Assembly: GCA_001766815.1 (NCBI GenBank)
Contig: LYOS01000003.1
Coordinates: 1 to 32,000, forward strand
Origin: Candidatus Syntropharchaeum caldarium
GTDB lineage: Archaea; Halobacteriota; Syntropharchaeia; Syntropharchaeales; Syntropharchaeaceae
Direction of reading: 5' to 3'
Length of the DNA: 32,000 nucleotides
In this document: positions 3,767 through 19,702 of the stretch, in pieces
How the letters are laid out: every line of letters starts with the position of its first letter
Position numbering within the stretch: the stretch's first letter is position 1
Notes under the pieces: model-generated
The model's input: the letters and a program-made list of their open reading frames with translations, nothing else
The model's database searches: none
Told to the model about the DNA's origin: nothing
Program-made: the position numbers and the translations under genes

Positions 3767-4345
3767 TTACCATAATTTACCCCTGTATTGCCCGATCGCA
3801 GGACATCCAAGGCACTGGCTGTTTTTATAAATTGCGCAGTCCTTACACTCGATATCGATTCCGCAGGGCTGCGTATCAACCAGTTTTATATCCATCTTCA
3901 CAGGTATGATCAACTTTTTTGCCGTGCTGATCACGATATTGAGTTCAACGCTCTCAACCTCTTCAATTGGGCGTATGTGACCGTTTACGATCGCCTCAAG
4001 GGTTGGAATGTCCTCACCTGCAAAGAATAGACAGACATTATTCTTTCCCGAGAGAATGAAACCGTTCAGGAAATATGGACAGTCTCTAAACATGTTGATT
4101 ATACGACTTGTATCTGCGGTTGCGATGTCCACCTTTGCGATATAAAGACCAAGCTTCGATGGATCTATCCCGCACCGTTTCTCTATCGCTCCCATATTTT
4201 TAAGCTTCTTGAGCCGCATCGCAACTGAGGGCTGTGTGAGTTTGATCCTCTCCGCGATCTCCTTCTGTGAGATATCGGGATTCTCGATGAGAAGTGTAAT
4301 AATCTCCCGATCCTTTGAGTCGATCTTGAATTCTTTCAGCGGCAT
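3767..4345 (-). CDS. Lrp/AsnC-family transcriptional regulator with a C-terminal Cys-rich extension
   Basis: 192 aa. N-terminal HTH (DREIITLLIENPDISQKEIAERIKLTQPSVAMRLKKLKNMGAI) and a RAM-like middle part. The tail is C161-x5-C-x2-C-x7-C-x2-C181-P (PCGIDIECKDCAIYKNSQCLGCP). Transcribed divergently from the redox operon. Confidence 0.8.
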   Translation of the reverse strand: MPLKEFKIDSKDREIITLLIENPDISQKEIAERIKLTQPSVAMRLKKLKNMGAIEKRCGIDPSKLGLYIAKVDIATADTSRIINMFRDCPYFLNGFILSGKNNVCLFFAGEDIPTLEAIVNGHIRPIEEVESVELNIVISTAKKLIIPVKMDIKLVDTQPCGIDIECKDCAIYKNSQCLGCPAIGQYRGKLW

Positions 4346-4360
4346 CTATAGACTGATTGT

Positions 4361-4421
4361 TTTAATAGTATATAGGCTTTATTGGAATAAAGTTATAAAT
4401 TATAGTCAAAAGCTTTATATA
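4361..4421. promoter_or_regulatory. Divergent promoter region with two TATA-like boxes
   Basis: 75-nt AT-rich spacer between the lrp-like start (4345, minus) and the operon start. TTTAATAGTATATA lies at 4361-4374 and AAAAGC-TTTATATA at 4405-4421. A short inverted repeat TATAA-A-TTATA sits at about 4394-4404. Assigned by position and composition only. Confidence 0.3.
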
Positions 4422-4687
4422 TGATAAATATGATAGAGTACCAGAGGCATACTATGATAGATGCATGTCCAGGTGCAGTAGACTTCACAGACCCAAAACC
4501 GATGTTTGTCAAATGTGAGTGCGGGCGCGAGGTTGAGATATGGACGGATGAGATAAGCGCTGAATGTGAATGCGGTAGAACCGTAAAGCGCGATATGAAA
4601 TCCGCCTGTTATCTCTGGTGTGAGCATGCTGCTGAATGTATTGGAGAAGAAAACTTGAGGAGAATCAAGGATGAAAAAAGTGAGTGA
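4421..4687 (+). CDS. Small Cys-rich (zinc-ribbon-like) protein, first gene of the redox operon
   Basis: 88-aa ORF with 8 Cys, including two CEC knuckles (KCECGREVEIW...AECECGRTV) and C-x4-WC-x5-C. Overlaps the next gene by 17 nt. The real start may be ATG 4454 (MIDACPG...), because the TATA-like box overlaps 4421 and AGAGG precedes 4454. Confidence 0.6.
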   Translation: MINMIEYQRHTMIDACPGAVDFTDPKPMFVKCECGREVEIWTDEISAECECGRTVKRDMKSACYLWCEHAAECIGEENLRRIKDEKSE

Positions 4688-6518
4688 ACACGATTCTGTT
4701 AATGAAATGCGCGAGATTTTGAGTGCTGATGGAATTACAAATCTCTTTGATCGTTTTGAAAATCAAAACGGGAGGTGTCCTTTCTGTACAGGAGGGATAA
4801 GCTGCCAATTGTGCAGTAACGGACCCTGCAGGATAAAGAAGGGGGCAGACAGGGGTGCATGTGGGATAGATGCTGACGGGATGGCGATGCGAAACTTCCT
4901 TTTGAAGAATATCATGGGAACGGCAACCTATACCTATCATGCGAAAGAGGTCGCAAAGACGCTCAAAGCCACAATAGCGGGGAAGACCGCCTTTAAGATA
5001 ACTGACGAAGCAAAATTGAAAGAACTTGCATCGATGTTTGGGATTGCAGATACTGATCTTGGTGGAGCTTTCCTTGATCTTATAAAGACCGATTCGGATG
5101 AAGTTCTGAAGTCTGTTGAACTTCTGGCACCAGCAAGCCGAATAAAGGTCTGGAAGGAGCTTGGAATACTCCCAGGAGGTCCACAGGAAGAGATGATGGA
5201 TGCGCTCTCAAGCTGTCTTACGAATGTTGATGGGGATTATGTATCACTTGCAAAAAAGGCGATGAGGCTTGGAATATCGACGATATATGGTTCGCAGATC
5301 CCGCTTGAACTGGGGCAGGACATCCTCTTTGGAACCCCTATGCCACACGAGGTTAATACCGATCTTGGGATCATCGATCCTGATTATGTTAACATCGTGC
5401 CGAACGGACATGAACCTTTCATCGGTGCTGCGATCATCGAGACTGCTCACACTGATCTTGTTCAGCAGAAAGCACGAGATGCAGGGGCAAAAGGACTTCG
5501 TGTCATCGGCTCGATCGAGACAGGGCAGGAGCTTATACAGCGTTTCGAGGTTGATGATGTCTTTGTTGGGTTTACAGGTAACTGGATCTCGATTGAGCCT
5601 GCACTTGCAACGGGTGGAATTGATCTCTTTCTGATGGATATGAACTGCTCACCACCTGCAATGGGGGAGTATCAGGATAAATACAACACAACGCTTCTCT
5701 CGGTCTCAAAACTTGTTTCAGTCCCTGGAATGAAGGGGCAGAAAGTATACATGCCCGAAGAGGTTAAGGCACAGGCAGAAGAACTGATCGATATGGCGAT
5801 TGAAAACTTTAAGGCTCGCAAGGGTAAACCAACACATCCTGTTTCAAAGACCCAGAAAGCGATTGCCGGAATCTCGATTGAAGCGTGTCTTTCGGTGCTT
5901 GGAGGTAGCCTTGATCCACTGCTTGATGTGATAAAGAACGGTACGATTAAGGGTGTTGTTGCGGTTGTGAGCTGTACAAGTCTCAAAAACGGTCCACAGG
6001 ACTCACTCACCGTTGCTGTTGCAAAAGAACTCATAAAACGGGACATTCTTGTTGTTGCTGCAGGATGTGGAAACGCAGCACTCCAGGTCGCAGGACTTGA
6101 GACACCTGAGGCAAAGGAGCTTGCAGGAGACGGCCTTAAAGCAGTCTGTGAGAAGCTTGGAATCCCACCAGTTTTGAGTTTTGGTACATGCACGGATACG
6201 GGCAGGATCGCAATGCTTGTAACAGCGGTTGCAGATGCCCTTGGTGTTGATCCATCAGATCTCCCCGTGGCTGTGACAGCTCCTGAGTACATGGAGCAGA
6301 AGGCAACAATAGATGCGGTATTTGCGGTTGCGTTCGGACTTTACACACATGTATCACCGATCCCACCTGTTACAGGAGCGGATCGTCTTGTTAATCTTCT
6401 TACAGAGGATGTTGAGGGACTTACAGGGGGCAAGATCGCTGTAGGCGACGATCCTGTTGAGATCGTTGATGGGATTGAAGCGCATATAAATAAGAAACGA
6501 GCTAAGCTTGGGATATAA
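4671..6518 (+). CDS. cooS: CooS/Hcp-superfamily enzyme: CO-dehydrogenase catalytic-subunit scaffold with a non-canonical active-site ligand set (CooS-V-like)
   Basis: 615 aa. N-terminal B/D-cluster Cys block CPFCTGGISCQLCSNGPCRI...GACG. CooS-like motifs NGHEP (His247), MDMNCSPP (Cys326), VVSCTS (Cys435), AAGCGNAAL (Cys466), FGTCTDTGR (Cys507) and EQKA (Lys544). Where canonical CooS has GICCTGNE, this protein has GSIETGQE (Ile282/Glu283). Confidence 0.85.
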   Translation: MKKVSEHDSVNEMREILSADGITNLFDRFENQNGRCPFCTGGISCQLCSNGPCRIKKGADRGACGIDADGMAMRNFLLKNIMGTATYTYHAKEVAKTLKATIAGKTAFKITDEAKLKELASMFGIADTDLGGAFLDLIKTDSDEVLKSVELLAPASRIKVWKELGILPGGPQEEMMDALSSCLTNVDGDYVSLAKKAMRLGISTIYGSQIPLELGQDILFGTPMPHEVNTDLGIIDPDYVNIVPNGHEPFIGAAIIETAHTDLVQQKARDAGAKGLRVIGSIETGQELIQRFEVDDVFVGFTGNWISIEPALATGGIDLFLMDMNCSPPAMGEYQDKYNTTLLSVSKLVSVPGMKGQKVYMPEEVKAQAEELIDMAIENFKARKGKPTHPVSKTQKAIAGISIEACLSVLGGSLDPLLDVIKNGTIKGVVAVVSCTSLKNGPQDSLTVAVAKELIKRDILVVAAGCGNAALQVAGLETPEAKELAGDGLKAVCEKLGIPPVLSFGTCTDTGRIAMLVTAVADALGVDPSDLPVAVTAPEYMEQKATIDAVFAVAFGLYTHVSPIPPVTGADRLVNLLTEDVEGLTGGKIAVGDDPVEIVDGIEAHINKKRAKLGI

Positions 6519-6538
6519 GAAAAGGAGGTGAGAGGATC

Positions 6539-6700
6539 ATGAAAGAAGTATTTCTATGCAGTGAACATGGATGTTGTCCAAGTGTTGAGATACTCGATGA
6601 GAGTGTGGTAATCGGCGAAGAGACATTCGTTGAACTCAACAGAGATCAGTGGAACGATCTTGTGTCTAAGATCGAGTCAGGCGTTCTTGGAAAGATTTGA
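6539..6700 (+). CDS. Small conserved-looking protein (53 aa), not in the ORF track
   Basis: Strong RBS AAGGAGGTGA at 6522-6531, then ATG 6539 and TGA 6698-6700. Sequence: MKEVFLCSEHGCCPSVEILDESVVIGEETFVELNRDQWNDLVSKIESGVLGKI. The pattern (Cys pair, xVEI, then W..LV..I..G) resembles DUF397-type small domains. Confidence 0.6.
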   Translation: MKEVFLCSEHGCCPSVEILDESVVIGEETFVELNRDQWNDLVSKIESGVLGKI

Positions 6701-6715
6701 GTGGGGGTATACTGG

Positions 6716-7042
6716 ATGGATGTGATCAATGTTCTTGATAGGGAATCTTTCAGCCCAGATTCAAAGAGTGTTGTTCGCCTGATCGATGAAGATTACCTCC
6801 AGCTTAACCTGATATGCCTTGAGGCAGGGCAGGAAGTTCCATATCACAATGCAAACTCGAATGTGAACCTGCTGGTCGTGAGGGGAGAGGGTGAACTGGA
6901 GCTTGCAGGTGAAAAAGCACGACTGGAACATGGAAAGATTTTCCGTGTTCCTTTCAAGACAAGGATGAGGATCGTGAACGATTCAAATGATCGTCTTTCT
7001 TTCCTCGTCTTTAAAACCCCGAATCCAAAAGAAATGAGGTGA
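6716..7042 (+). CDS. Cupin-fold protein
   Basis: ORF 6701-7042. I prefer ATG 6716, which is preceded by GGGGGT (6703-6708). Cupin-like core LEAGQEVPYHNANSNVNLLVVRGEGELELAGE...IFRVPFKTRMRIVN, with a reduced His set. Confidence 0.65.
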   Translation: MDVINVLDRESFSPDSKSVVRLIDEDYLQLNLICLEAGQEVPYHNANSNVNLLVVRGEGELELAGEKARLEHGKIFRVPFKTRMRIVNDSNDRLSFLVFKTPNPKEMR

Positions 7043-7054
7043 GGAAGGTAGAAT

Positions 7055-8407
7055 ATGAGAAAAGGTTCTGTAATTTTTGTGCTGCTGCTATTGATCCTGC
7101 CTTTTATGGGATCTGCGGTAGCATCGGAGTGTACAGACTGCCACGAAAGCGTGACACCGAAGATCGTTGAAGACTTCAGTAGCGGTGTGATGGGCGATAA
7201 GATCGACTGTTCGAACTGCCATGGATCGGCACACAATTCCGCCGATAATGTGGAGAATGTGAAATTCCCAACCCATGAGACCTGTGGTGCCTGTCACGAT
7301 GTACAGGATACCCAGTATATGGAGGGTAAACACAGTATCGCATGGGCCGCTCTCTTTGCACCTCCCACAACCGGTGATCAGCCTAAAGAGTTAATGGAGG
7401 GTCAGAAGGGATGTGGAGGTTGCCACAAGATCGGAGCAAAGGATGAAACAGGCTGGGATGATTATGAGTACGGTGTGGTGGGCTGTGACAACTGCCATAC
7501 AAGACATAGCTTCTCAGTAGAGGAGGCGAGAAAGCCTGAAGCATGTCTGCCATGCCATCAGGGATTTGATCATGCACAGTGGGAGATGTACTCAACATCG
7601 AAGCACGGTGTGATCTACCAGACAGAGGGTGATAGATGGGACTGGAGTGTACCGCTCAGTGAGGCAGGCGACGAGTACACCGCTCCAACGTGTCAGCTCT
7701 GCCATATGAAAGATGGAGATCACGCGGTGATGACAAGCTGGGGCTTCCTCGGTGTCAGGGTCGAAGAGCCAGATGAGGAATGGATGGATGATCGTGTATC
7801 TGTACTCAAGGCGTATGGTGTACTCGATGCAGACGGAAATCCGACAGATAGGTTCGATCTCGTGGGTGCTGCAAAGCTTGCGCGGCTTACGATGGATGAA
7901 TGGAATGCCGAAAGAGAGGAGATGATTGCAACCTGCAGTGAGTGTCACTCAGAGACATTTGCAAGAAACTCACTTGAAGAGGGTGATCACCTTCTGAGAG
8001 AATCTGACAGGATCTATGCAGACTCAATCGAGACGGTTGCAGCCCTTTACAGGGATGGAATTCTTCCAGAGCCAGAGTACATCGAGGAACTTCCGTCTTA
8101 CCCATATCCGGATGTCCTGAGGTTCTATGATCAGGCAACACCAATCGAGGAGGACCTCTGGCTCATGTGGATGGAGTACAGGATGCGGACATTCCAGGGC
8201 GCTTTCCATGCAAATCCCGACTACGTTCAGTGGTATGGATGGGGACCACTCAAAGAGACCGCTGTGAGAATTCAGGCAGAGGATGAGCGATTGCGGGCTG
8301 AGGCAGCAACTCCAGAGAGTTCGGTAGAAGAGAGTCCTGGGTTTGGTGCGATCATCGGGATTGCAGCACTACTTGGACTGGTTCTCTACCTTAGAAGAAG
8401 GGGATAA
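7055..8407 (+). CDS. hao: Hydroxylamine-oxidoreductase (HAO)-family octahaem cytochrome c, secreted, with a PGF-CTERM anchor
   Basis: 450 aa with a Sec signal peptide (...FMGSAVA|SE). Eight CxxCH motifs at C26, C52, C77, C120, C144, C164, C213 and C294. The block [42 protein letters not shown], plus APTCQLCHM and [11 protein letters not shown], closely matches Nitrosomonas HAO as I recall it. C-terminus: [25 protein letters not shown]. Confidence 0.85.
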
Positions 8408-8419
8408 GTTAATTACCCC

Positions 8420-8431
8420 TTTTCTTTTTTT
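8420..8431 (+). terminator. Oligo-T archaeal terminator after the cytochrome gene
   Basis: TTTTCTTTTTTT lies 13 nt after the stop codon, followed by AAAAAATAT and the GGAGGT RBS of the next gene. Confidence 0.45.
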
Positions 8432-8453
8432 AAAAAATATGGAGGTTTTAAGA

Positions 8454-8873
8454 ATGGAACCTGTAAACGAGAATAAGATTGGTATTGCAAAGGGAACTGA
8501 GCTTGAAAATGTTGTGAAGGCAAACTTTCAGGGTGAGACGACGGAAGTCGGGCTTTACCTTGCGATGGCACGATGTGCACAGCGAGAAGGTTACCCCGAG
8601 ATCGCAGAGGTCTTGAAGACGCTTGCCTTTGAAGAAGCGGCGCATGGAGCACGATTTGCTGAGCTCAACGCCGAGATCTCAACGAGCACAGAGGAGAATC
8701 TGAAATATATGCTTGAAGGCGAACGAATGGCGAATAAGGAGAAGTTAGATGCTGCGATGAAGGCGAAAGAACTCGGGCTTGATGAACTTCATGATCTCTT
8801 CGATGAATCCTCCAGAGATGAAGCACGGCATGCAAAAGCACTTGAAGGTCTCCTGAAGCGGTATTTTGGTTGA
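8454..8873 (+). CDS. Rubrerythrin-like diiron (ferritin-fold) protein without a rubredoxin domain
   Basis: 139 aa from ATG 8454, with RBS GGAGGT at 8441-8446. The 8343 start in the ORF track overlaps the cytochrome tail and is rejected. Diiron motifs E..GE...Y, EEAAH and DEARH. Confidence 0.8.
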
Positions 8874-8882
8874 TAGATTAAC

Positions 8883-9212
8883 ATGAAGATCGCAGTGGTT
8901 AGATGCGAGATCGTGTCTGAGGTATGCCCTGGTGTTGGCTGCTTCAAGGCATTCAATGATCGGAGAGAGTATTTCAAAGATTATGGAGAGGATGCCGAGA
9001 TCGTGGGGTTCTTTACCTGCGGCGGGTGCTCTGGCAGGCGGGTTATGAGACTTGTTGGAAGCCTTAAGAAGTACGGGGTCGATGTAATCCATCTTGGGTC
9101 CTGTATGACGATGGGTGAGCGAGAGGGATATCTCCCATGCCCGCATCTGGATACGATTAGATCAGGTATCGAGTCAAAAGGTGTCAAGGTAGTATCAGGG
9201 ACGCATCATTAG
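8883..9212 (+). CDS. CGGC-domain protein
   Basis: 109 aa: MKIAVVRCEIVSEVCPGVGCF...FFTCGGCSGRR...HLGSCM. This is the literal CGGC motif in its usual context. Confidence 0.75.
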   Translation: MKIAVVRCEIVSEVCPGVGCFKAFNDRREYFKDYGEDAEIVGFFTCGGCSGRRVMRLVGSLKKYGVDVIHLGSCMTMGEREGYLPCPHLDTIRSGIESKGVKVVSGTHH

Positions 9213-9229
9213 AGAAGAGGTTACTGAAT

Positions 9230-9910
9230 ATGGTAAAACGACTCATCATAAAGATAGACGAGGAGAAATGTGATGGCTGTGGGGAATGTGTCATCGCATG
9301 CGAGGAGGGAGCACTTGAGATCATCGATGGAAAGGCTAAGGTTGTCAAAGAGAGTCTCTGCGATGGTCTTGGTGCGTGTATCGGTGAATGCCCACAGGGA
9401 GCGCTTACAATCGAAGAACGTGAAGCAGAGGCATTTTTGGGGGCAGAAATACCTGTATGCCCCTCCACAAAGTCGATGGTCTGGGAAAAACCTTCTGAAT
9501 CGAAAGAAACAGTACGAACAAGCTCTGAGCTTCGCCAGTGGCCAGTTCTACTCAATCTTGTATCTCCACAGGCTCCCTATTTCAAAAACGCAGATTTACT
9601 CCTTGTTGCAGACTGCGTTCCTGTTGCATACCCGAACTTCCACGCCGACTTTCTTAAAAATCACGCTATCGCGGTTGGTTGCCCAAAGTTCGATGATGTC
9701 AACGTCTATCTGAATAAGGTTACAGAGATCCTGAAGCAATCAGATCTTAAAAGTCTCACCGTGCTCTACATGGAGGTTCCATGCTGTTTTGGACTTGTAC
9801 ATCTTGCACAGGAGGCGGTCAAGCGATCTGGAATGGATGTGCCGTTCAAGGTCATTAAGATTGGAATAAAGGGCGAGGTAATTGAAGAAAAAAGAGGTGA
9901 AATAAAATGA
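9230..9910 (+). CDS. 2x[4Fe-4S] ferredoxin domain fused to an uncharacterised Cys-containing C-terminal domain
   Basis: 226 aa. CDGCGECVIAC and CDGLGACIGECP are ferredoxin motifs. The C-terminal part carries WPVLLNLV...LLLVADCVPVAY...VGCPKFDD...MEVPCCFGL. Confidence 0.75.
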   Translation: MVKRLIIKIDEEKCDGCGECVIACEEGALEIIDGKAKVVKESLCDGLGACIGECPQGALTIEEREAEAFLGAEIPVCPSTKSMVWEKPSESKETVRTSSELRQWPVLLNLVSPQAPYFKNADLLLVADCVPVAYPNFHADFLKNHAIAVGCPKFDDVNVYLNKVTEILKQSDLKSLTVLYMEVPCCFGLVHLAQEAVKRSGMDVPFKVIKIGIKGEVIEEKRGEIK

Positions 9911-10236
9911 GCGATGAGGCCATAAAATCAAGAGCAATCAAACTCTCAGAATTTATCGATTACTCCCCAGGCTCGATCGTGAGTAAAGCAATCGTTGATA
10001 AGAAGGCAGGTACGATAACCCTCTTTGCTTTTGACCGTGGTCAGGGCTTGAGTGAACATTCAGCACCGTTTGACGCTGTTGTGCAGGTTATAGAGGGTGA
10101 GGCAGAGGTCATAATTGGTGGAGAGGTGCATAGGGTCAGAGCGGGAGAGATCATCATCATGCCAGCAGATGTCCCACATGCAGTGAAGGCGCCTGAGCAA
10201 TTCAAGATGCTTCTTGTGATGATCAGATCGCAATGA
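9907..10236 (+). CDS. Cupin-fold protein
   Basis: 109 aa with an ATGA start/stop overlap with the upstream gene. Core: GQGLSEHSAPFDAVVQVIEGEAEVIIGGEVHRVRAGEIIIMPADVPHAV. Confidence 0.7.
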   Translation: MSDEAIKSRAIKLSEFIDYSPGSIVSKAIVDKKAGTITLFAFDRGQGLSEHSAPFDAVVQVIEGEAEVIIGGEVHRVRAGEIIIMPADVPHAVKAPEQFKMLLVMIRSQ

Positions 10237-10245
10237 GGAGAAAAA

Positions 10246-11025
10246 ATGTTCTCAAGTGATCTGAAATTAATCGTAATTTACAGCGATCTCTTCGGAGATA
10301 AGTTCATCAGAAACCTCGTGAATACGACAACCTTCTGTATATCCTGCGCTGAGGCGTGCGATCACTGCAGAGAAGGTAAGTTTAACTTTTCGACAAATAT
10401 CGTGGGCATCTTCAAATTACCGGATCCTGCAACGCTTCCTGAATTTATCGAGGAAGGAATTGAGGAGTACATGCCACAGAATCTCCCAGAAGCAGATCTT
10501 GCGATAGTATCAGGGGTTCACAATGATATTCTGCTTGAGCTTCCATATCTTCTTAAAAGTGCAGGGATAAAAGCGATGATCGTCCCAATCGAGGCATCAG
10601 CACGTCTTGGAATTGCACAGGTTCAGGAAATATGTGAGAAACTTGAAATCGAGTTTGCCGCACCAAAACCGTTCTGTGAGCTTGATCTCGATCCTGATAA
10701 GCCTGTGATCTCACAGTTCATCGAAGAGTTCGGTATCGGGCGACCGAAGCTAAACGTGGAGCTTGATGGAGAGAGGATTGCCCGTATGGATGTTATAAGG
10801 AGTGCCCCCTGTGGCTGCACATGGTACATCGCAAAGCAGCTTCGAAATGTTAAGATTTCAGATAGAAGAGAGTTATGGGATCGGATCAGTGAGGCACACC
10901 ACTCCTACCCCTGTACCGCAAGCATGGAGCACGATTCTGTACTTGGAGATACGATACTTCATAAGGCGGGGTATATTGCGAGGGAGGCGGTTGAGGAGGG
11001 GATTGAGGGGAAAACAATTTTATAG
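10246..11025 (+). CDS. Cys-containing conserved archaeal protein, probably DUF166 family
   Basis: 259 aa. Features I associate with DUF166: N-terminal C..C..C..C, KPFCEL, RSAPCGCTWYIAKQL and HHSYPCTASMEHD...GDTILHKAGYI. Family assignment is from memory only. Confidence 0.55.
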   Translation: MFSSDLKLIVIYSDLFGDKFIRNLVNTTTFCISCAEACDHCREGKFNFSTNIVGIFKLPDPATLPEFIEEGIEEYMPQNLPEADLAIVSGVHNDILLELPYLLKSAGIKAMIVPIEASARLGIAQVQEICEKLEIEFAAPKPFCELDLDPDKPVISQFIEEFGIGRPKLNVELDGERIARMDVIRSAPCGCTWYIAKQLRNVKISDRRELWDRISEAHHSYPCTASMEHDSVLGDTILHKAGYIAREAVEEGIEGKTIL

Positions 11026-11061
11026 CATTTGCAAATAATGGTTTTAGCAGGAAAGTTTCTG

Positions 11062-11071
11062 TTTTTTTTTT
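11062..11071 (+). terminator. T10 tract, a likely terminator of the second redox operon
   Basis: Ten consecutive T, 37 nt downstream of the stop at 11025. Confidence 0.45.
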
Positions 11072-11086
11072 GTTATTGGTAACCGC

Positions 11087-11100
11087 TATATATATTTAAA
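11087..11100 (+). promoter_or_regulatory. TATA-like box positioned for a leaderless transcript starting near 11119
   Basis: TATATATATTTAAA lies about 20-30 nt upstream of ATG 11119. That spacing fits an archaeal TATA-to-TSS distance. Confidence 0.35.
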
Positions 11101-11118
11101 CTTCAACCCTCTGGTTTG

Positions 11119-11247
11119 ATGAAAGCGTTGGGCATTTCAGTGATGGTGCTGATGGTGATGGCGGTAACGGTAGTGGCTGCAGGTGCGAGCGATCTGAAAG
11201 CGGTTGGAAGCCCAGTACGTGATATTGTAACGGACGCAAATAAGTAA
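11119..11247 (+). CDS. 42-aa hydrophobic micro-protein (signal-peptide-like or single TM), not in the ORF track
   Basis: MKALGISVMVLMVMAVTVVAAGASDLKAVGSPVRDIVTDANK. Shows strong GNN/RNY codon periodicity (gtg atg gtg ctg atg gtg atg gcg gta acg gta gtg gct gca ggt gcg). A TATA-like box sits upstream and the next gene starts 3 nt after its stop. Confidence 0.4.
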   Translation: MKALGISVMVLMVMAVTVVAAGASDLKAVGSPVRDIVTDANK

Positions 11248-11249
11248 TT

Positions 11250-11861
11250 ATGATAATCATGCGAAATAGAAACAACCGAACCCAAAAAATCATACGATCT
11301 CTTGCTGGTTTGTTGTTAATGGTACTACTATTCTTTTTAGTGCTCACAACCGTGGTGGGAAAGGATATTTACCAGTACAGATTGTTTGAGGCCATTGGGC
11401 AGATGTATGGAGTTTTTATCCTTTTTGGATGGCTTTTTATTGGTTTTTTGGCTGCGATGCTTATCTTTATCCGTGTATTTAAATGGGATAATAAACTGAA
11501 CGCTGGTTATGTGATCGGGGGTTTATTTGGCCTGTTTGTTTATTATCTCTGGGCGTTGTTCTTGATTCTATTTCTCAGATCTTCTACTTCGTGGTTCAAT
11601 AGCTTTCAGTGGCTTACAGGAGGCTCGATCATATTGTTTGTAGTGGGAGGTATCTATCTCTTTACCTCTTGTGGCAGACAGAAAGTGAAGGAGCGTATTC
11701 GATCGGACGTGATAATCTTTCTGATCACATTCTTCGTATGGCTTGGTTTTGTAGGGATACTGGATATTGCGAAGATGCCTCTCCCTGTTCAAGTTAACAT
11801 TGGCATTGGTTACCTGCTGGCTCTTATGATTCTCTGGAGTGTGAAAAGCAATGAAGTTTAG
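11250..11861 (+). CDS. Polytopic membrane protein (about 6 TM), function unknown
   Basis: 203 aa with repeated hydrophobic segments (LLLMVLLFFLVLTTVV, VFILFGWLFIGFLAAMLIFI, LFGLFVYYLWALFLILFL, SIILFVVGGIYLF, IIFLITFFVWLGFVGIL, IGIGYLLALMILW). Alternative start at ATG 11259. Confidence 0.65.
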   Translation: MIIMRNRNNRTQKIIRSLAGLLLMVLLFFLVLTTVVGKDIYQYRLFEAIGQMYGVFILFGWLFIGFLAAMLIFIRVFKWDNKLNAGYVIGGLFGLFVYYLWALFLILFLRSSTSWFNSFQWLTGGSIILFVVGGIYLFTSCGRQKVKERIRSDVIIFLITFFVWLGFVGILDIAKMPLPVQVNIGIGYLLALMILWSVKSNEV

Positions 11862-11970
11862 TATCGCTATTTACACCACAGGTATTTTTTATTTTATCAC
11901 TTTTTTAATTTTACTTCTTATTGCATATTGGTTGTGGAAAAAGAGAAAAATAAAAGGAGAAAAGATGTGA
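11851..11970 (+). CDS. Possible 39-aa single-TM micro-protein
   Basis: MKFSIAIYTTGIFYFITFLILLLIAYWLWKKRKIKGEKM, overlapping the upstream gene by 11 nt. The AT-rich context makes chance hydrophobic ORFs likely. Confidence 0.2.
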   Translation: MKFSIAIYTTGIFYFITFLILLLIAYWLWKKRKIKGEKM

Positions 11971-12749: not shown

Positions 12750-13502
12750 ATGGATAAAGCCGTTGACATGAAGGCAGAGGAGATAATTAAAAGATTATCT
12801 AATCGCGATGAAGAATTCTTCATAAACACAACTGCCAAGGTTGTTTCAGTGGATAAAAGAATAAAAGAAGGGGATAGGTGGACTTTGGGAAGTATTACAG
12901 CTGAGAACATAGAAGATGCAAAAACGTACAAGATAAACTTTAGAATTAACTTGTGGGGCAAATTCTCAATTCTGGTGAATGAGTTGGAGAAAGGAGATAT
13001 CTTAAATATTAAAAATGGACTGGCAAAAAATTATTCTTACAATGATAAAACATACCCCCAGATAAATTGTGACGAAAGATACGGTTCTCAGGTGGAGATC
13101 AAATATAAAAAAGAAAGAATCCTCGTTGACGGAGCAAATGTTGCATGGGAAGCAAAAAAAGAGGGAGGGCCAAATATAGATAATATCGAAATAATCCGGT
13201 TAAAATTGGAGAAGCAAGGATATACCCCAATAATTATTGTTGATGCCAGTCTGAGGCATATAATACCCGAAGCAGATAAAGAACGGTTTGGAAAGTGGAT
13301 CGATGAAGGAAAAGTGATCCAGGCCCCTGCACAAGTAAGAGCGGATGATGCGTTATTGAAATTTGCAGATGGAAGAGGACTGAAAATAGTTAGTAATGAT
13401 ACATTTAAAGATTACAGGAATATTTACCCTTGGATTAAGGATAGGAGTAAAAGGGTACCGTTTAACATAATAGGTACTCAGGCTATCTTGCATTTCCATT
13501 GA
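12750..13502 (+). CDS. OB-fold (RPA/tRNA-anticodon-type) domain fused to a Zc3h12a-like NYN ribonuclease domain
   Basis: 250 aa with RBS GGAGGCGGGTG upstream. N-terminal OB-like segment: AKVVSVD...WTLGSITAEN...INLWGKF...LEKGDILNIKNG. NYN acidic residues in context: ILVD127GANVAWE, IIIVD165ASLRH, RADD200ALLKFA and KIVSND217TFKDY. Confidence 0.7.
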   Translation: MDKAVDMKAEEIIKRLSNRDEEFFINTTAKVVSVDKRIKEGDRWTLGSITAENIEDAKTYKINFRINLWGKFSILVNELEKGDILNIKNGLAKNYSYNDKTYPQINCDERYGSQVEIKYKKERILVDGANVAWEAKKEGGPNIDNIEIIRLKLEKQGYTPIIIVDASLRHIIPEADKERFGKWIDEGKVIQAPAQVRADDALLKFADGRGLKIVSNDTFKDYRNIYPWIKDRSKRVPFNIIGTQAILHFH

Positions 13503-14593: not shown

Positions 14594-15646
14594 TCAATAC
14601 CTCAACACCGCCCCAACCCCACCAAGTCCCTTCAACTGCTTGCCAGGCTCAAACTCGCTGCTGAATATGACAACTCTCCCCCCTGCATCCTCCACCAGCT
14701 TGATCAACTCCTCAAGCTTCCTCTCTCCTTCCATCCTGCTCTCTCTCAGAACCTCATCGAGTAGCAGCAGTATCTTAACAGCCCCAATCTCAGCCTTGCT
14801 CCGCACCTCATCAAAGCCATAAGCTGCCTTGCCCTCAAGTGCAACCTCTCTCAAGAACTCCTCGATGAGTTCAGCCTCCTCTGCTATCCTGAAAGAAGAC
14901 GCAATCTCAAGAACCCCGCTTTTTCCTTTTCTCAGGACTTCCTGATACCCTGAGGGTCCTGTGGACTGTGTATCGACGACGATGAGTTTGGATGAGATCT
15001 CCTGGCTCTGCTCCCTGAGGCGTGATACAAACTCATTCTTCACAAAACCAGGACCTGCAACAACGAAAAGATCCGCTTCAATGGGTACCCGTTTAAGGTG
15101 ATCTATAACGATGGAAAAGAAATCCTTATCTGTGCCACCTCTTTTCCCCCTCGATCCACTGCACGTGAAGAGTTCTTCGACCCCAAACTCCCGCAGCCTC
15201 CCACACGCAGCATATCCCTCTTCAATTGTTAGAACCAGCACACTCGTTCCTGAACCCCGCTCAACCGCGCTCTCCAACCGCTCGAGCTGATCCCCGTGCC
15301 ATGATTTGGATACTTTAAGCTCACTTCCAGGCTCGATGTTGAGTGTGTGATATGAGCCGGTATCCATTCCTTCCTCAATTATACCATGGATCCTCAATCG
15401 ATTGGAAAACCTGTGAAATTCAACCTCCTCGACCCTGATCGCGAGATAGACCGGTTTTTTCTCCCGCTTCTCGGATCGTATCTTATCACTTGCTTCTTCC
15501 ACCCGCCTGTATGTCAGAGCATGAATGATATCCCCAGGTTCAACGATGTACTTCAGATGCCATAGATCATCGAGTGATTCCACCAGGAGTTTTACACTCC
15601 CTTCCCGACGTTTCAGCTTCTTTGCGAGTATCTGCACACAGTCCAC
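14594..15646 (-). CDS. pelA: Pelota (Dom34) mRNA-surveillance / ribosome-rescue factor
   Basis: 350 aa. ...SVKLLVESLDDLWHLKYIVEPGDIIHALTYRR... and the eRF1-like C-terminal domains are typical of archaeal Pelota. Confidence 0.85.
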   Translation of the reverse strand: MDCVQILAKKLKRREGSVKLLVESLDDLWHLKYIVEPGDIIHALTYRRVEEASDKIRSEKREKKPVYLAIRVEEVEFHRFSNRLRIHGIIEEGMDTGSYHTLNIEPGSELKVSKSWHGDQLERLESAVERGSGTSVLVLTIEEGYAACGRLREFGVEELFTCSGSRGKRGGTDKDFFSIVIDHLKRVPIEADLFVVAGPGFVKNEFVSRLREQSQEISSKLIVVDTQSTGPSGYQEVLRKGKSGVLEIASSFRIAEEAELIEEFLREVALEGKAAYGFDEVRSKAEIGAVKILLLLDEVLRESRMEGERKLEELIKLVEDAGGRVVIFSSEFEPGKQLKGLGGVGAVLRY

Positions 15647-15663
15647 CGCTTAAAACTTAAAGG

Positions 15664-16713
15664 ATGAAGCCTAAAAGGTTTATCATGCGAATTCTTGCAG
15701 TTGACATCGGTATGGGAACACAGGACATCATGATTGTGGATGAGGCTAAATCACCGCTTGAAGGTTCGTACAAGCTCGTTCTCCCCTCACCAACCCGTTA
15801 TTTTGCACAAAAGATCCGATCCACAACGGGAGATCTTCTGATATACGGTGATACGATGGGTGGAGGACCGATAAATCGCGCAATCCTTGATCACCTCAAA
15901 GAACACAGGGTTTACATGACACCATCTGCTGCAAGAACGATAAGGGACGATCTTGAGCAGGTCAGGGAGCTCGGGATCACACTGATATCAGACGATGAGC
16001 TTGAGAAAGTAGATTGTGAAAAGCTCAGGATAACAGATCTTGACCTTGAACTGCTCAGATCACGGCTTGAGGCATTTGGGATCGATACGTCCTTTGATGT
16101 AATCGCTGTCGCAGTTCAGGATCATGGAGTTGCACCCCGGGGCGTGAGTGATCGTGAAAATCGATTTATCATCTTCAAGAAGCTTCTTTTATCGTCAAGA
16201 CGGATCGAGGAATTTTCCCATTTAAATAAAATAAGGGGAGAATTCAGCAGGATGAAATCGATCTTGAAGCGACTCAGATCAAGCTTCACAGGGGATATTC
16301 TCATTATGGATACAGGTGTCGCAGCAGCTCTCGGAAGCCTAATGGATGAGAGGATGAGTGGGATTCAGCGATCTGTTGCTGTTAATATCGGAAACGGACA
16401 TACACTTGCTGTATCGATCGAGGATCGAGAGATATGCGGCTTTTTCGAGCATCATACACGGATGATAGATCGAGATAAATTACTGCATTTCCTTGATCGA
16501 CTCAAAAAGGGCGTTATAACCTTTGATGAGGTATTTGATGATGGGGGGCACGGTGCCCTTATATTTGAGCCGATCGAACCTGATGTTATTACAATCACAG
16601 GGCCAAAGAAGTCGTTTATGAAGGGGGCAGAGGTTCATGTTGCACCTGCGGGAGATATGATGATGGCAGGTCCTGTGGGGCTTGTAGAGGCTGTAAAGTA
16701 CAGGCTGGGATGA
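15664..16713 (+). CDS. ASKHA (actin-like ATPase) fold protein, probably DUF1786 family
   Basis: 349 aa. ILAVDIGMGTQDIMIVD is a phosphate-1-type motif, and MDTGVAAALG and VNIGNGHT occur later. A leaderless start at ATG 15685 is plausible, given the TATA-like CTTAAAACTTAAA at 15650-15662. Confidence 0.5.
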   Translation: MKPKRFIMRILAVDIGMGTQDIMIVDEAKSPLEGSYKLVLPSPTRYFAQKIRSTTGDLLIYGDTMGGGPINRAILDHLKEHRVYMTPSAARTIRDDLEQVRELGITLISDDELEKVDCEKLRITDLDLELLRSRLEAFGIDTSFDVIAVAVQDHGVAPRGVSDRENRFIIFKKLLLSSRRIEEFSHLNKIRGEFSRMKSILKRLRSSFTGDILIMDTGVAAALGSLMDERMSGIQRSVAVNIGNGHTLAVSIEDREICGFFEHHTRMIDRDKLLHFLDRLKKGVITFDEVFDDGGHGALIFEPIEPDVITITGPKKSFMKGAEVHVAPAGDMMMAGPVGLVEAVKYRLG

Positions 16714-18092
16714 AAATGGAGCTTGAGCGTCAGATGATGAGGGCAATCGATGATGGTGCTGACTACCTGGATATAAGGTACGAGAAGGAACAGAGTACAG
16801 TTATTGAGATCAGAGATGATGTATTACGGGAAGCAAAGGTCGGATTCGAGCTTGGTGCTGGCATCAGGGTACTCCTCGATGGGTCGTGGGGGTTTTATGC
16901 AACAAGCGATCCTTCAAGACTTGAAGATGGGATTACAAAAGCTTTAAAGCTTGCAAAGGCACATAAAGCGGATAAAAATATCAAACTCGCACCCTCTGAC
17001 TCAACGAACGAGGAATTTAAGCTCAAGGTGAGAGAACCTCCTGAGGATGTGGGAATTGATCGGAAGATCTCGCTCGTCAGAGAAGCCTATAAGAAGCTTG
17101 TGGATGTGGATGAGCGGATCAAGAGCGCTTCTGTCTATTACACCGATAGTATAATCGAGAAGTTGTTTCTAAACTCAGAAGGATCTGAGATCAGGTTGCA
17201 TCTCCCTTACATCTCGATCGGGTTCAGGGCGGTTGCATCAGAGGGGGGCGAACTTCAGGAAGCCCATGATCGAGTCGGCGCATTCACGGGTTTTGAACTG
17301 ATAAAAGAGAATGATCCTGGAGAGATCGCGGCGAGTGTATCAAGGCGTGCACTGAGGCTGCTTGATGCGAAAAATCCACCCTCAGGAAAATTTCCGGTGG
17401 TGATGAATGGTAAGCTTCTCGGCGTTTTTGCTCACGAGGCGCTCGGACATGCAGCAGAGGCGGATCTTGTTGTATCGGGTGAGTCGATTCTTGCAGATAA
17501 GATCGGAAGCAGGATTGCATCCGAGATCATAACGATCGCCGATGATCCCTCAATCCCACAGACACATGGCTACTATCCCTTCGATGATGAGGGAGTGAGA
17601 TCCAGACGGACGCTGATCATAGAGAACGGGACCCTCAGGTCGTACCTCCATACAAGATCAAGTGCAGGAGAACTCGGAATGGAGGTTACCGCAAATGCGC
17701 GGGCAGAGGATAACTCACACATACCGATTGCAAGGATGAGCAATATTATAATCGAAAGAGGAGACCAGAGCTTTGATGAGATTATTGAGGATATAAAGAT
17801 GGGGATATATGCAAAGGGTATGCGCGGTGGTCAGGTTGATACGGTCGGTGGTAACTTCCAGTTCACAGCAGAAGAAGCTTTCATGATCGAGAATGGTGAG
17901 GTTAAAGGCTCGATAAGAAACCTCTCTCTTGCAGGGAGGACGTTGGAGGTGCTTGAAAAGATCGATGCACTCGGCAAAGATGTAACTGGATCGATCGGAT
18001 TCTGTGGAAAAAACGGTCAGACAGTCCCTGTATCAGAATCAGGACCTGATGCGAGGATTTCTGAGATTCTGGTGGGTGGTAACGATGCTTGA
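16710..18092 (+). CDS. tldD: TldD-family metalloprotease
   Basis: 460 aa with the HEALGH (HExxxH) motif and ...GNFQF... and the usual TldD/PmbA C-terminal core. ATGA overlap with the upstream stop. Confidence 0.85.
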   Translation: MKMELERQMMRAIDDGADYLDIRYEKEQSTVIEIRDDVLREAKVGFELGAGIRVLLDGSWGFYATSDPSRLEDGITKALKLAKAHKADKNIKLAPSDSTNEEFKLKVREPPEDVGIDRKISLVREAYKKLVDVDERIKSASVYYTDSIIEKLFLNSEGSEIRLHLPYISIGFRAVASEGGELQEAHDRVGAFTGFELIKENDPGEIAASVSRRALRLLDAKNPPSGKFPVVMNGKLLGVFAHEALGHAAEADLVVSGESILADKIGSRIASEIITIADDPSIPQTHGYYPFDDEGVRSRRTLIIENGTLRSYLHTRSSAGELGMEVTANARAEDNSHIPIARMSNIIIERGDQSFDEIIEDIKMGIYAKGMRGGQVDTVGGNFQFTAEEAFMIENGEVKGSIRNLSLAGRTLEVLEKIDALGKDVTGSIGFCGKNGQTVPVSESGPDARISEILVGGNDA

Positions 18093-19397: not shown

Positions 19398-19667
19398 CTA
19401 CTTACTCCTTCTCGATCTTCCAAGTATGATGTGTGCGAGCGTTCCAAAATCCCCACCAAGATTATCGGTCATACCAATCTCAGGTAGAGGATCAATCTGA
19501 TTTCCTTTTGGTGCCTTACCCTTCATCTGTTCAACAACACCATAGATCTGGGAGATACCTGTTGCTCCAAGCGGATGTCCTTTTCCAAGCAGACCACCTG
19601 ACATGTTGGTTGGGATCTTTCCACCGATCTCGAAATCACCCTCCTTACATGCTTTGTATCCCTCAAA
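19398..19667 (-). pseudogene. 3'-terminal remnant of a thiolase (acetyl-CoA C-acetyltransferase) gene
   Basis: An 89-codon open frame bounded upstream by an in-frame TGA (19668-19670): FEGYKACKEGDFEIGGKIPTNMSGGLLGKGHPLGATGISQIYGVVEQMKGKA...GMTDNLGGDFGTLAHIIL. It contains the thiolase C-terminal signature (NxSGG...GHPxGATG). The N-terminal ~300 aa are absent in any frame, and ccmE starts 36 nt further on the opposite strand. Confidence 0.75.
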
Positions 19668-19702
19668 TCATTCAAAATCTATTTAAACACGCTCACCTTA
19701 AT

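Follow-up and report, generated by a model that had tools for sequence, protein, structure and literature searches.

The carbon monoxide dehydrogenase (CODH) family includes a divergent subclade represented by CooS-V of Carboxydothermus hydrogenoformans (PDB 7B7Q), which has the CODH fold and carries a redox-morphing [4Fe-3S-nO] hybrid cluster, shows no turnover of CO or CO2 and reduces hydroxylamine slowly in vitro (PMC9311411). The exchange of Cys295 (CODH-II numbering) for Glu is a synapomorphy of the CooS-V subclade and goes with a Gly41-to-Cys exchange that gives a bridging [2Fe-2S] site, and the C295A and C295E variants of CODH-II are without Ni (PMC9311411). The C. hydrogenoformans gene has been described as having no informative genomic context (PMC9311411). 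Here, such a context is described for an archaeal relative encoded in a 32,000-nt stretch (the window) of Candidatus Syntropharchaeum caldarium (assembly GCA_001766815.1, contig LYOS01000003.1, positions 1 to 32,000), where an island of eleven genes between positions 3767 and 11025 combines a CooS-V-type enzyme with an octahaem cytochrome c of the hydroxylamine oxidoreductase (HAO) family that carries export and anchor signals. Ca. Syntrophoarchaeum is a thermophilic, sulfate-linked syntrophic butane oxidiser. It is proposed, with a probability of about 0.58, that the island encodes a two-compartment system by which nitrite, NO and hydroxylamine are reduced or detoxified.

Octahaem cytochromes of the reductive HAO type (epsilon-Hao, Kustc0458 with PDB 6H5L, and PDB 4QO5, which we take to be the Ignicoccus octahaem) resemble the window cytochrome in having eight CxxCH motifs, an Asp-His pair and no cross-link Tyr. 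The window protein differs in being shorter (450 aa), archaeal and, as predicted from its PGF-CTERM signal, lipid-anchored; its identity to the solved structures is low, and neither a dihaem partner like Kustc0457 nor a NapC/NrfH-type quinol dehydrogenase gene lies alongside. Characterized HAOs without the Tyr cross-link are reductases, Kustc0458 converting nitrite to NO and epsilon-Hao reducing both nitrite and hydroxylamine, and hydroxylamine is oxidised by neither (PMC8042395). NrfA-dependent nitrite ammonification likewise has a multihaem N-oxide reductase outside the cytoplasm, one that shares its evolutionary lineage with the window octahaem, and NrfA genes adjoin bacterial homologues of the latter; however, the window is without NrfA or NrfH and its cytochrome is of the HAO type rather than a pentahaem protein with a CxxCK haem.

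On the cytoplasmic side, the hybrid-cluster protein (Hcp) systems hcp-hcr and hcp-frdX, which are under HcpR or NsrR control, share with the window enzyme a superfamily and, as predicted for the latter, a near-identical type of hybrid cluster; their enzymes are cytoplasmic reductases of NO and NH2OH that have a ferredoxin-like partner gene, and genuine Hcp is found in the CooS-V position by an octahaem in two of the loci compared here (L124 and L142; loci are referred to by L numbers). The window enzyme has instead a dimeric CODH scaffold, for which a potential ∼300 mV lower has been reported, and its regulator is of the Lrp/AsnC type. Finally, the "CODH/nitrate reductase cluster" of Methanoperedens BLZ2, which includes cooS_2 and hao (PMC13079737), shares with the window a Cys-tailed AsnC/Lrp regulator, a Glu-type CooS-V, an eight-haem PGF-CTERM HAO and a nearby ferredoxin-AF_0155 gene. 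It differs in that its HAO belongs to another subfamily (32% identity) and is followed by CBS, HPP and ferredoxin genes, and in that a canonical cooS_1 and nitrate reductase lie beside the cluster, which is found on a mobile element as well. A preliminary description of the window knew of no earlier account of the combination as a unit in archaea, a point that needs correction, as the adjacency of cooS_2 and hao had already been drawn for BLZ2, with the former as a CO dehydrogenase (PMC13079737).

The CooS-V-Type Enzyme

Along its entire length the 615-aa protein aligns with PDB 7B7Q (E = 2.4e-234), and no canonical CODH gives a match better than E = 1e-122. It also matches the Prismane family (E = 2.7e-144) and the CooS model TIGR01702 (796 bits against a cut-off of 478), a model that clade D proteins pass too and that does not separate them from canonical CooS. 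At the Cys295 position it has Glu283 (GSIETGQE), which aligns to Glu295 of 7B7Q (GSIESGQE) and is invariant in the CooS-V alignment, whereas canonical enzymes have Cys there (GMCCTGNE, GSMCTGQE). The missing C-cluster cysteine noted in the preliminary description is thereby confirmed, the other five ligands (H247, C326, C435, C466, and C507) being retained and likewise invariant. Residues C36-P-F-C39 form the CxxC motif for [2Fe-2S], where the canonical BLZ2 cooS_1 has Gly. At the site of the acid-base His93 lies Tyr87, which aligns with the first His of AAHSDH in 6T7J and is invariant in the alignment, and Lys544 is kept. Tyr at the acid-base position is listed for structural group D-1 of Inoue et al. 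(PMC6344411).

The ligand set of a canonical Ni,Fe-CO dehydrogenase is not present, given the Cys295-to-Glu and His93-to-Tyr exchanges, and the curated Hcp models score far below their cut-offs (TIGR01703, 44 bits against 361; NF003658, 41 against 367). By its sequence the enzyme is an orthologue-level CooS-V of clade D-1, and would be Hcp-like in action yet a member of the CODH family, with a chemistry that is already known. The full-length match, Glu at 295, the five ligands, the CxxC motif and the Tyr are the points of likeness with the C. hydrogenoformans enzyme; the window protein, known from sequence alone, differs in being archaeal and in being packed with an exported octahaem, a Cys-tailed Lrp and a ferredoxin-AF_0155 gene. 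The "Hcp-like CooS variant" of the preliminary description therefore stands as regards the active site, although the already characterized CooS-V class to which it belongs (PMC9311411; PMC6344411) had not been recognized. That description had also judged that this was not a carboxydotrophy module, and the ligand set agrees, as does the window, in which no cooC, cooF-type, acs/cdh or hydrogenase gene was found among open reading frames (ORFs) of at least 110 aa; carboxydotrophy was rejected on both grounds.

The Octahaem Cytochrome

The cytochrome (Multi-haem_cyto, E = 1.4e-40) has its CxxCH motifs at residues 26, 52, 77, 120, 144, 164, 213, and 294. Only HAO-family structures were significant among its PDB matches, namely 6H5L (the best, E = 2.7e-36), 1FGJ (9.5e-36), 4FAS and 6M0P (∼1e-36), 4N4J (1e-30), and 6HIF (1.6e-25), and the matched structures include Kustc0458 (6H5L), Nitrosomonas europaea HAO, and Kuenenia HOX and HDH. 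A conserved Asp172-His173 pair follows haem 6, aligns to CHSGVDH of N. europaea HAO and recurs as GFDH, GLDH or GPDH across all three HAO subfamilies described below. From the HAO structure this pair is presumably part of the distal pocket, and retention of the catalytic pocket points to an enzyme rather than a mere electron wire. The position of N. europaea Tyr467, the cross-link tyrosine, is Gln392 in the window protein and Q, H, L, M or F among relatives, with Tyr residues at +2 and -2 of Gln392; the absence of the cross-link is in this sense read from an alignment. Because it lacks that tyrosine, as epsilon-Hao and Kustc0458 do, the octahaem is expected to be of the reductive type. An oxidative, nitrifier-type HAO was rejected on the same ground and because the hydrazine_HDH model (107 bits) remains far under its cut-off of 900.

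The C-terminus consists of a PGF motif, a hydrophobic helix and a basic tail, and exceeds the cut-offs of both curated anchor models (PGF-CTERM, 21.9 against 18.8; TIGR04126, 27.6 against 24.5), while the N-terminus was judged by eye to be a signal peptide. The extracytoplasmic location given in the preliminary description is in keeping with these signals.

Genes for cytochrome c maturation, the machinery for attaching the eight haems, are present ∼8.4 kb downstream of the island (CcmE, 19433-20095; CcmF, 20059-21987). A 211-aa ORF without a Pfam hit overlaps and follows CcmF (stretch 19433-22619).

Conservation of the CooS-V/HAO Pair

A CooS-V alignment was scanned against one genome per species, giving at least 560 relatives, of which the best 80 loci were kept with 10-kb flanks; neighbours were identified by tblastn with the window proteins and by de novo ORF clustering, and the two approaches agree. 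Overall, ∼170 loci were compared, many of the metagenome loci being truncated and the locus sets being phylogenetically non-independent. Glu occupies the 295 position in all 80 CooS-V loci. In 9 of the 80 species-level loci the CooS-V string includes an HAO-family gene, always on the same strand, and eight of the nine HAO genes start 72-157 nt downstream of CooS-V. All nine belong to the Syntrophoarchaeum, Methanoperedenaceae or Methanosarcinales clade (9/25 loci evaluable downstream in this archaeal clade), and in a rough, quickly made neighbour-joining tree they are scattered over the archaeal CooS-V clade, basal branches included. The synteny in related genomes on which the preliminary description depended thus exists, in a lineage-restricted form.

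The flanks of the 80 CooS-V genes (1.07 Mb) contain ten HAO-family matches, eight of them starting within one 86-nt span downstream on the same strand, for which P is ∼5e-19 under uniform placement and ∼3e-8 if only three independent events are allowed; the arrangement exceeds chance. The CooS-V-adjacent octahaems fall into three subfamilies with a mutual identity of at most 35%: A (window and Ca. Syntrophoarchaeum butanivorans BOX1), B1 (Methanoperedens BLZ2, METP1 and a Rifle metagenome-assembled genome, MAG) and B2 (uncultured Methanosarcinales, HGW-1). Common to all three are the Asp-His pair, a set of eight haems, a signal peptide and an anchor at the C-terminus. As the CooS-V proteins beside them are still ∼70% identical, the pair would appear either to have been kept through very deep divergence or to have been rebuilt with different paralogues.

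Other neighbours of CooS-V are more widespread. The commonest is the ferredoxin-AF_0155 fusion, present in 19-20 of the 80 loci and mostly directly upstream, and a cupin of the cupin 2 family is found in nine. In ANME-2 (anaerobic methanotrophic archaea) and Methanosarcinaceae the neighbours are a trio of rubrerythrin (Rbr)-like, flavodiiron and FTR-like genes; no hidden HAO N-terminus was found just downstream of CooS-V in truncated ANME-2 loci. An NrfA-like gene (14760-15992) was observed ∼8 kb downstream of CooS-V in an actinomycetotal locus (L052).

Exchange of the Cytoplasmic Partner

From the octahaem side, neighbourhoods of homologues were compared and metagenomes were scanned with a type-A alignment. 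CooS-V precedes the type-A octahaem only in the Syntrophoarchaeum lineage (L001/L010, L093, and L112). In two loci whose octahaems are 81-82% identical to that of the window (L094 and L109), the same Cys-tailed Lrp (73-75% identity) is divergent from a string of NIR_SIR, cupin 1 (76-83%) and octahaem, so that the CooS-V slot holds a 225-aa sirohaem NIR_SIR protein, the best match of which is the NirB sirohaem domain (E = 4e-51, against ∼1e-13 for sulfite reductases). The corresponding slot of L124 is taken by a genuine Hcp, of which the C-terminus is present, and a further contig, from among the bacterial homologues (L142), has the order hcp, ferredoxin-AF_0155, hao-like, its Hcp scoring 853 bits against a cut-off of 367. 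A NirB-like gene follows octahaem and Rbr in seven further close loci; ANME-like relatives show p233, octahaem, Rbr, NirB-like and cupin genes in succession, preceded by DUF166 and an AsnC regulator.

Of 48 loci with bacterial homologues of the octahaem (44-50% identity), eight have an NrfA gene (PF02335, E = 2e-133) no more than 3 kb away; in four of the eight, including three near-identical contigs, the two genes are immediate neighbours. A bacterial octahaem homologue is immediately preceded by the ferredoxin-AF_0155 fusion in four loci. To judge by these family assignments, the partners of the octahaem family (NrfA, Hcp, CooS-V, and NirB-like) would all be N-oxide enzymes.

Further observations concern the octahaem loci themselves. 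The type-A octahaem of L124 (704-1920), next to the Hcp, is split into two ORFs, looks frameshifted and has GFDL for GFDH at the pocket pair; a pseudogene or an assembly error is possible. The conserved protein of ∼233 aa named p233 above is encoded directly upstream of the type-A octahaem in L098 (591-1292) and 14 other loci (e.g., L005, 7267-7956); it has no match in Pfam or NCBIfam and is not encoded in the window. In a Methanosarcinales MAG (L002, 14261-19001), the octahaem lies inside a large oxygen-defence cluster with desulfoferrodoxin, two flavodoxins, an FMN reductase, several rubrerythrins and an FTR-like gene.

The Divergent Regulator

The regulator matches HTH_AsnC (E = 1.4e-11) and HTH_24 (E = 9e-14), with a weak AsnC_trans_reg match, and contains eight Cys, those of its tail being spaced C-x6-C-x2-C-x7-C-x2-C. 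The Cys pattern is kept at 47-77% identity in L001/L010, L094, L109, L029, L033, and L037, all homologues having the two core Cys and the motif PPCG-x(3-5)-C-x2-C-x(7-8)-C-L-G-C-P. Each of the seven Lrp homologues detected in the ∼170 loci adjoins an HAO-like gene, whichever the subfamily (A, B1, or B2) and whether the cytoplasmic enzyme is CooS-V or NirB-like. A metal- or thiol-based sensor is plausible; the redox sensing named in the preliminary description would be putative, the conserved Cys pattern and the co-occurrence with HAO-like genes being what is shown. Where the archaea have this Lrp, bacterial CooS-V loci have an Rrf2-family regulator (ten loci, all bacterial) or a Crp/Fnr-family one (seven loci); the Rrf2 family includes NsrR and the Crp/Fnr family HcpR, regulator types known for hcp, for which neighbours of the kind seen beside CooS-V in ANME-2 are likewise known (PMC1274295).

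Organization of the Island

All eleven genes of the island were recovered with the coordinates, strands and spacing given in the preliminary description, as was the oligo-T tract (Table 1). Recomputed junctions in the first plus-strand string are -17 nt (88-aa gene and CooS-V), +20, 0, and +12, followed by a 46-nt spacer, and those in the second string are +9, +17, -4, and +9 nt. The only junction to be revised is the abutting one between the 53-aa gene and cupin 1, which becomes a 15-nt gap if cupin 1 starts at ATG 6716; this start is more probable than GTG 6701, because it gives homology to MDIIKL... in L094 and L095 and has a G-rich stretch upstream.

Table 1. Coordinates of the genes and other features of the island (numbering of the window).
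Feature	Coordinates	Strand	Remarks
Lrp/AsnC-type regulator, 192 aa	3767..4345	-	Divergent from the enzyme string; two core Cys and a five-Cys C-terminal tail
Divergent intergenic region, 75 nt, AT-rich	4346..4420		Promoter and operator presumed here
88-aa protein, 8 Cys	4421..4687	+	Overlaps the CooS-V start by 17 nt
CooS-V-type (clade D-1) CODH-scaffold hybrid-cluster enzyme, 615 aa, predicted cytoplasmic	4671..6518	+	PDB 7B7Q match
53-aa protein, 3 Cys	6539..6700	+	Strong ribosome-binding site GGAGGTGA; lineage-specific
Cupin 1, 108 aa from ATG 6716	6716..7042	+	Cupin_2, E = 2e-7; mechanical ORF start is GTG 6701
HAO-family octahaem cytochrome c, 450 aa	7055..8407	+	Eight CxxCH, predicted Sec export, PGF-CTERM
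Imperfect hairpin and oligo-T, spanning the octahaem stop codon	8401..8431	+	Possible, perhaps leaky, archaeal terminator
Rubrerythrin-like diiron protein, 139 aa	8454..8873	+	Rubrerythrin, E = 3e-14; no rubredoxin domain or tail
CGGC-domain protein, 109 aa, 7 Cys	8883..9212	+	PF08821, E = 4.5e-35
2x[4Fe-4S] ferredoxin-AF_0155 fusion	9230..9910	+	Fer4 families; C-terminal PF27217 with four conserved Cys
Cupin 2, 109 aa	9907..10236	+	Cupin_2, E = 2e-11
DUF166 protein, 259 aa, 9 Cys	10246..11025	+	PF02593, E = 4.8e-64

The oligo-T tract TTTTCTTTTTTT (8420-8431) is immediately preceded by the imperfect hairpin GGGGATAAGTTAATTACCCC (8401-8419), and hairpin and T-tract are also kept after the octahaem of BOX1 (L010), a conservation that suggests that a terminator, possibly leaky, separates the two strings. 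Within the lineage the genes are closely related, the ferredoxin-AF_0155 fusion being 100% identical to a protein of an S. butanivorans MAG and the octahaem 99% identical to a Syntropharchaeales MAG protein and 87% to that of BOX1. The G+C (GC) content is even across the island (0.47-0.50) and the flanks are housekeeping genes, with Ftr and DUF6125 upstream and Pelota, TldD/PmbA, CcmE/CcmF, TFB and RNA polymerase subunits downstream; a mobile-element origin was rejected on account of this uniform composition and of the flanking genes such as Ftr and RNA polymerase.

Neither the 88-aa nor the 53-aa protein has a match in Pfam or NCBIfam. The former is 88% identical in S. butanivorans and has homologues of 36-39% identity beside CooS-V in two bacterial loci (L058 and L060); the 53-aa protein is found only in the near-identical contig L112 and is not in BOX1. 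L094, L095, L109, and L116 have a cupin 1 homologue (75-83% identity) immediately upstream of the octahaem. In the second string, the rubrerythrin gene directly follows type-A octahaems in L002-L006, L098, L105, L107, and L117, cupin 2 is beside them in 6 of 32 close loci, and DUF166 in L002, L005, L095, L101, L105, L106, and L113, while the CGGC protein is conserved only in S. butanivorans.

Elsewhere, ferredoxin-AF_0155 fusions accompany AhpC/DsbD and flavodiiron/rubredoxin genes; distant members of the family have mixed stress contexts, and a Prismane gene is not always close by. An AlphaFold2 model of the AF_0155 domain is confident over residues 105-226 (pLDDT 75-94) and has a generic alpha/beta fold from which no function is inferred: a Foldseek search of the PDB with the model gave nothing significant (best E = 8.5e-3, TM ≤0.31), and the match of the fusion sequence to PDB entries is limited to the N-terminal ferredoxin part. 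Because this fusion is the commonest partner of CooS-V, and Rbr, cupin and DUF166 are the commonest partners of type-A octahaems, the second string looks less like independent baggage than like part of a merger of two recurrent modules, one comprising Lrp, CooS-V, HAO and the ferredoxin fusion and the other HAO-A, Rbr, cupin and DUF166.

The Methanoperedens Locus and its Expression

The BLZ2 locus (L029) contains the canonical cooS_1, in opposite direction, a 498-aa gene, DUF1894 and ferredoxin-AF_0155, and then, divergently, the Cys-tailed Lrp, Glu-type CooS-V, octahaem B1, CBS, an HPP-family membrane protein (E = 2e-59) and a ferredoxin; its gene order is that of PADDDONK_01836-01843 in a 2026 Nature Communications paper (PMC13079737). 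HPP is linked to CooS-V in four loci, and nitrite transport by this family in cyanobacteria and chloroplasts has been demonstrated (Maeda, 2014, as cited in PMC7438415). The two cooS genes of L029 are of different types, cooS_1 (4455-6311) being canonical with Cys at 295 and cooS_2 (10001-11869) being a Glu-type CooS-V; all BLZ2 cooS genes have been counted as Ni-CODHs, the Glu substitution not being mentioned (PMC13079737).

Published expression values for BLZ2 under CH4/NO3-, CO/NO3- and CO/CO2, in transcripts per million (TPM), are 602, 3613, and 614 for cooS_2, 17, 185, and 39 for hao, and 60, 552, and 236 for narG (PMC13079737). Expression of the cooS_2/hao pair thus follows nitrate respiration, not CO alone, which is compatible with a role in N-oxide handling. 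These values do not decide between a CO and an N-oxide role, because the canonical cooS_1 shows the same pattern.

Proposed Mechanism and Alternative Explanations

In the module proposed here, the octahaem would be exported by Sec, receive its haems from the Ccm system and be tethered to the membrane via PGF-CTERM, and would work reductively, converting nitrite and/or hydroxylamine to ammonium or NO. The CooS-V-type enzyme would form a cytoplasmic homodimer bridged by a [2Fe-2S] cluster; it would further contain a [4Fe-4S] cluster and a [4Fe-3S-nO] hybrid cluster, the last held by His247, Glu283, Cys326, Cys435, Cys466, and Cys507, and would remove small, uncharged species that cross the membrane (NO and NH2OH), as Hcp does. 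Low-potential electrons may reach it from the ferredoxin-AF_0155 fusion. The rubrerythrin-like protein, both cupins, and the CGGC and DUF166 proteins may be accessory redox or stress proteins, and the divergent Cys-tailed Lrp would control the string, possibly through a metal- or thiol-based sensor.

The comparative lines agree on the N-oxide role that the preliminary description had put forward: the exchange of enzymes in the CooS-V slot, the NrfA and Hcp neighbours, HPP, and the induction of the BLZ2 pair together with narG. The sequences show what the genes are, their ligand sets, the export and anchor signals, the conserved synteny and the exchange in the slot. The further choice between a respiratory and a detoxifying function, and the substrates, the electron path and the mode of regulation, are matters of inference, and detoxification rather than respiration is what we would infer.

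Several points weigh against this proposal. We know of no report of nitrate or nitrite metabolism in Ca. Syntrophoarchaeum, which is not known to encounter N-oxides. Among the island genes there is no membrane electron conduit for a surface cytochrome, and neither HPP nor any other N-oxide transporter was found in the window. The turnover of hydroxylamine by CooS-V is slow, its cluster potentials are those ∼300 mV below Hcp, and this was taken by its authors to hint at a different physiological function (PMC9311411). In BLZ2, besides the expression pattern shared with canonical cooS_1, cooS_2 is ∼35 times more abundant than hao. HAO is missing beside CooS-V in 71 of the 80 loci and most close relatives of the window octahaem are without CooS-V, from which it follows that each enzyme can work alone. 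Lastly, the rubrerythrin, flavodiiron and desulfoferrodoxin neighbours suit oxidative stress equally well.

These neighbours are the basis for reading the locus as a general oxidative- or redox-stress island, in which CooS-V would act, together with the rubrerythrin and further Fe-S and thiol proteins, as a peroxidase or as a hybrid-cluster enzyme related to O2 damage and the octahaem would scavenge peroxide or oxygen species or drain electrons. It is in favour of such a role that a rubrerythrin-like gene directly follows the octahaem both here and in many relatives, that desulfoferrodoxin, flavodoxins and more rubrerythrins surround the L002 octahaem, that CooS-V of ANME-2 lies behind the Rbr-like, flavodiiron and FTR-like genes, that AF_0155 fusions elsewhere accompany AhpC/DsbD and flavodiiron/rubredoxin, and that hybrid-cluster proteins show peroxidase activity (PMC9311411). 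However, NirB-like proteins and Hcp in the CooS-V slot, the NrfA neighbours and the Methanoperedens HPP would be left unexplained, the HAO pocket residues are conserved, and hcp/frdX of Clostridium difficile guards against nitrosative and not oxidative stress (PMC12915319). As the explanation of the island it is unlikely, yet since flavodiiron proteins and Hcp serve both purposes the two readings are compatible, and an oxidative-stress role may well coexist with the N-oxide role. Detoxification of sulfite or other sulfur oxyanions, shielding alkyl-CoM reductase metabolism from sulfite near the sulfate-reducing partner, is improbable. The organism does inhabit a sulfate-reducing consortium, sulfite is a substrate of other octahaem cytochromes (e.g., MccA), an Fsr-type F420-dependent sulfite reductase gene is near the octahaem cluster in L006, and the small NIR_SIR proteins also match the DsrA, CysI and Sir families; those matches, though, are far poorer than the one to the NirB domain, the octahaem is in the HAO branch and not with MccA or OTR, Hcp and CooS-V have no known sulfur-oxyanion activity, and the NrfA and HPP associations indicate nitrogen.

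A genuine CO dehydrogenase, wired outward through the octahaem to the partner or to nitrate reductase as the BLZ2 cluster was read, could appeal to the TIGR01702 equivalog score, to the 6- and 11-fold increases of cooS_2 and hao under CO/NO3- in a "CODH/nitrate reductase cluster" (PMC13079737) and to the surface multihaem cytochromes that related archaea use in interspecies electron transfer (PMC9012536). It is rendered highly improbable by the Glu and Tyr exchanges, by the inactivity of C. hydrogenoformans CooS-V on CO/CO2 and the loss of Ni from C295E CODH-II (PMC9311411), and by the lack of cooC, cooF and hydrogenase genes among the window's ORFs of at least 110 aa. Moreover, CO oxidation in BLZ2 can be explained by the canonical cooS_1 of the same cluster, cooS_2 is not induced under CO/CO2 (614 vs 602 TPM), no transmembrane link from the cytoplasmic enzyme to the lipid-anchored outer cytochrome is encoded, and exchange with a NirB-like reductase and Hcp does not fit. 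The slightest chance of all is given to the absence of any functional link, that is, to independent stress and redox genes lying side by side in a variable genomic island. The many CooS-V loci without an HAO neighbour, the unrelated contexts of the octahaem in Geoglobus and several close relatives, and a published synteny survey that saw no pattern for clade D (PMC13056359) would accord with it, but eight of ten HAO matches falling into one 86-nt span, downstream and on the same strand, at the P values given above, would not, nor would the tight junctions or the recurrence of the same Cys-tailed regulator with three divergent HAO subfamilies.

Other Genes in the Window

Between positions 11001 and 15000 the GC content falls to 0.38-0.42, against 0.47-0.50 in the island, and a different origin is possible; this region contains a 203-aa multi-pass membrane ORF without a family (11250-11861), an NYN-domain RNase (12750-13502) and a 214-aa ORF without a hit. 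Two neighbouring genes for TldD/PmbA-family metallopeptidases, preceded by a DUF1786 gene, lie within 16710-19392 and overlap by ∼90 nt if the GTG at 18004 is the start. RNA polymerase subunit B (24645-28019) is encoded by one 1124-aa ORF with Rpb2 domains 1-7 and no B'/B'' split; a split rpoB is usual among methanogen-related Euryarchaeota.

Implications for CooS-V and Alkane-Oxidising Archaea

The biochemistry of CooS-V, the reductive HAOs and the hcp-frdX/hcr systems are already known; what is new is the context. The clade D synteny survey does not mention cytochromes (PMC13056359), HAO-like and CooS genes are not discussed in a large ANME genome comparison, and no literature linking Syntrophoarchaeum with hydroxylamine was found, nor any description of the arrangement in which a Cys-tailed Lrp is divergent from CooS-V, a NirB-like protein or Hcp followed by an HAO-like gene, or of what it implies for the role of clade D-1. 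A wider generalization is offered tentatively, and is more doubtful than the reading of the island itself: the CooS-V-type "pseudo-CODHs" of clade D-1 may supply the cytoplasmic half of a system by which archaea defend themselves against N-oxides or respire them. In such a system CooS-V, Hcp and small NirB-like proteins would be functionally interchangeable, a lipid-anchored, cross-link-free HAO octahaem would form the outer half, and control would fall to Lrp/AsnC regulators of a new class, able to sense NO or redox state via a C-terminal Cys cluster.

Hundreds of genomes carry CooS-V-type proteins under the annotation of CO dehydrogenase (at least 560 such proteins in the present scan, with one genome per species), and for this class the partnership with a surface HAO, together with the interchangeability with Hcp and NirB-like proteins, provides a first concrete hypothesis from genomic context, namely N-oxide handling. 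Where CO metabolism of ANME and alkane-oxidising archaea is deduced from counts of "cooS" genes, these counts include Glu-type genes whose products are probably inactive on CO, among them one of the most highly expressed "CODHs" of Methanoperedens BLZ2. If the wider generalization holds, Methanoperedens cooS_2 would be an N-oxide reductase and not a CO dehydrogenase, and the processing of nitrite, NO and hydroxylamine would be routine in archaea that oxidise alkanes or methane. An investment of these strict anaerobes in defence against such compounds is suggested, which would bear on their habitat and on their links to the nitrogen cycle.

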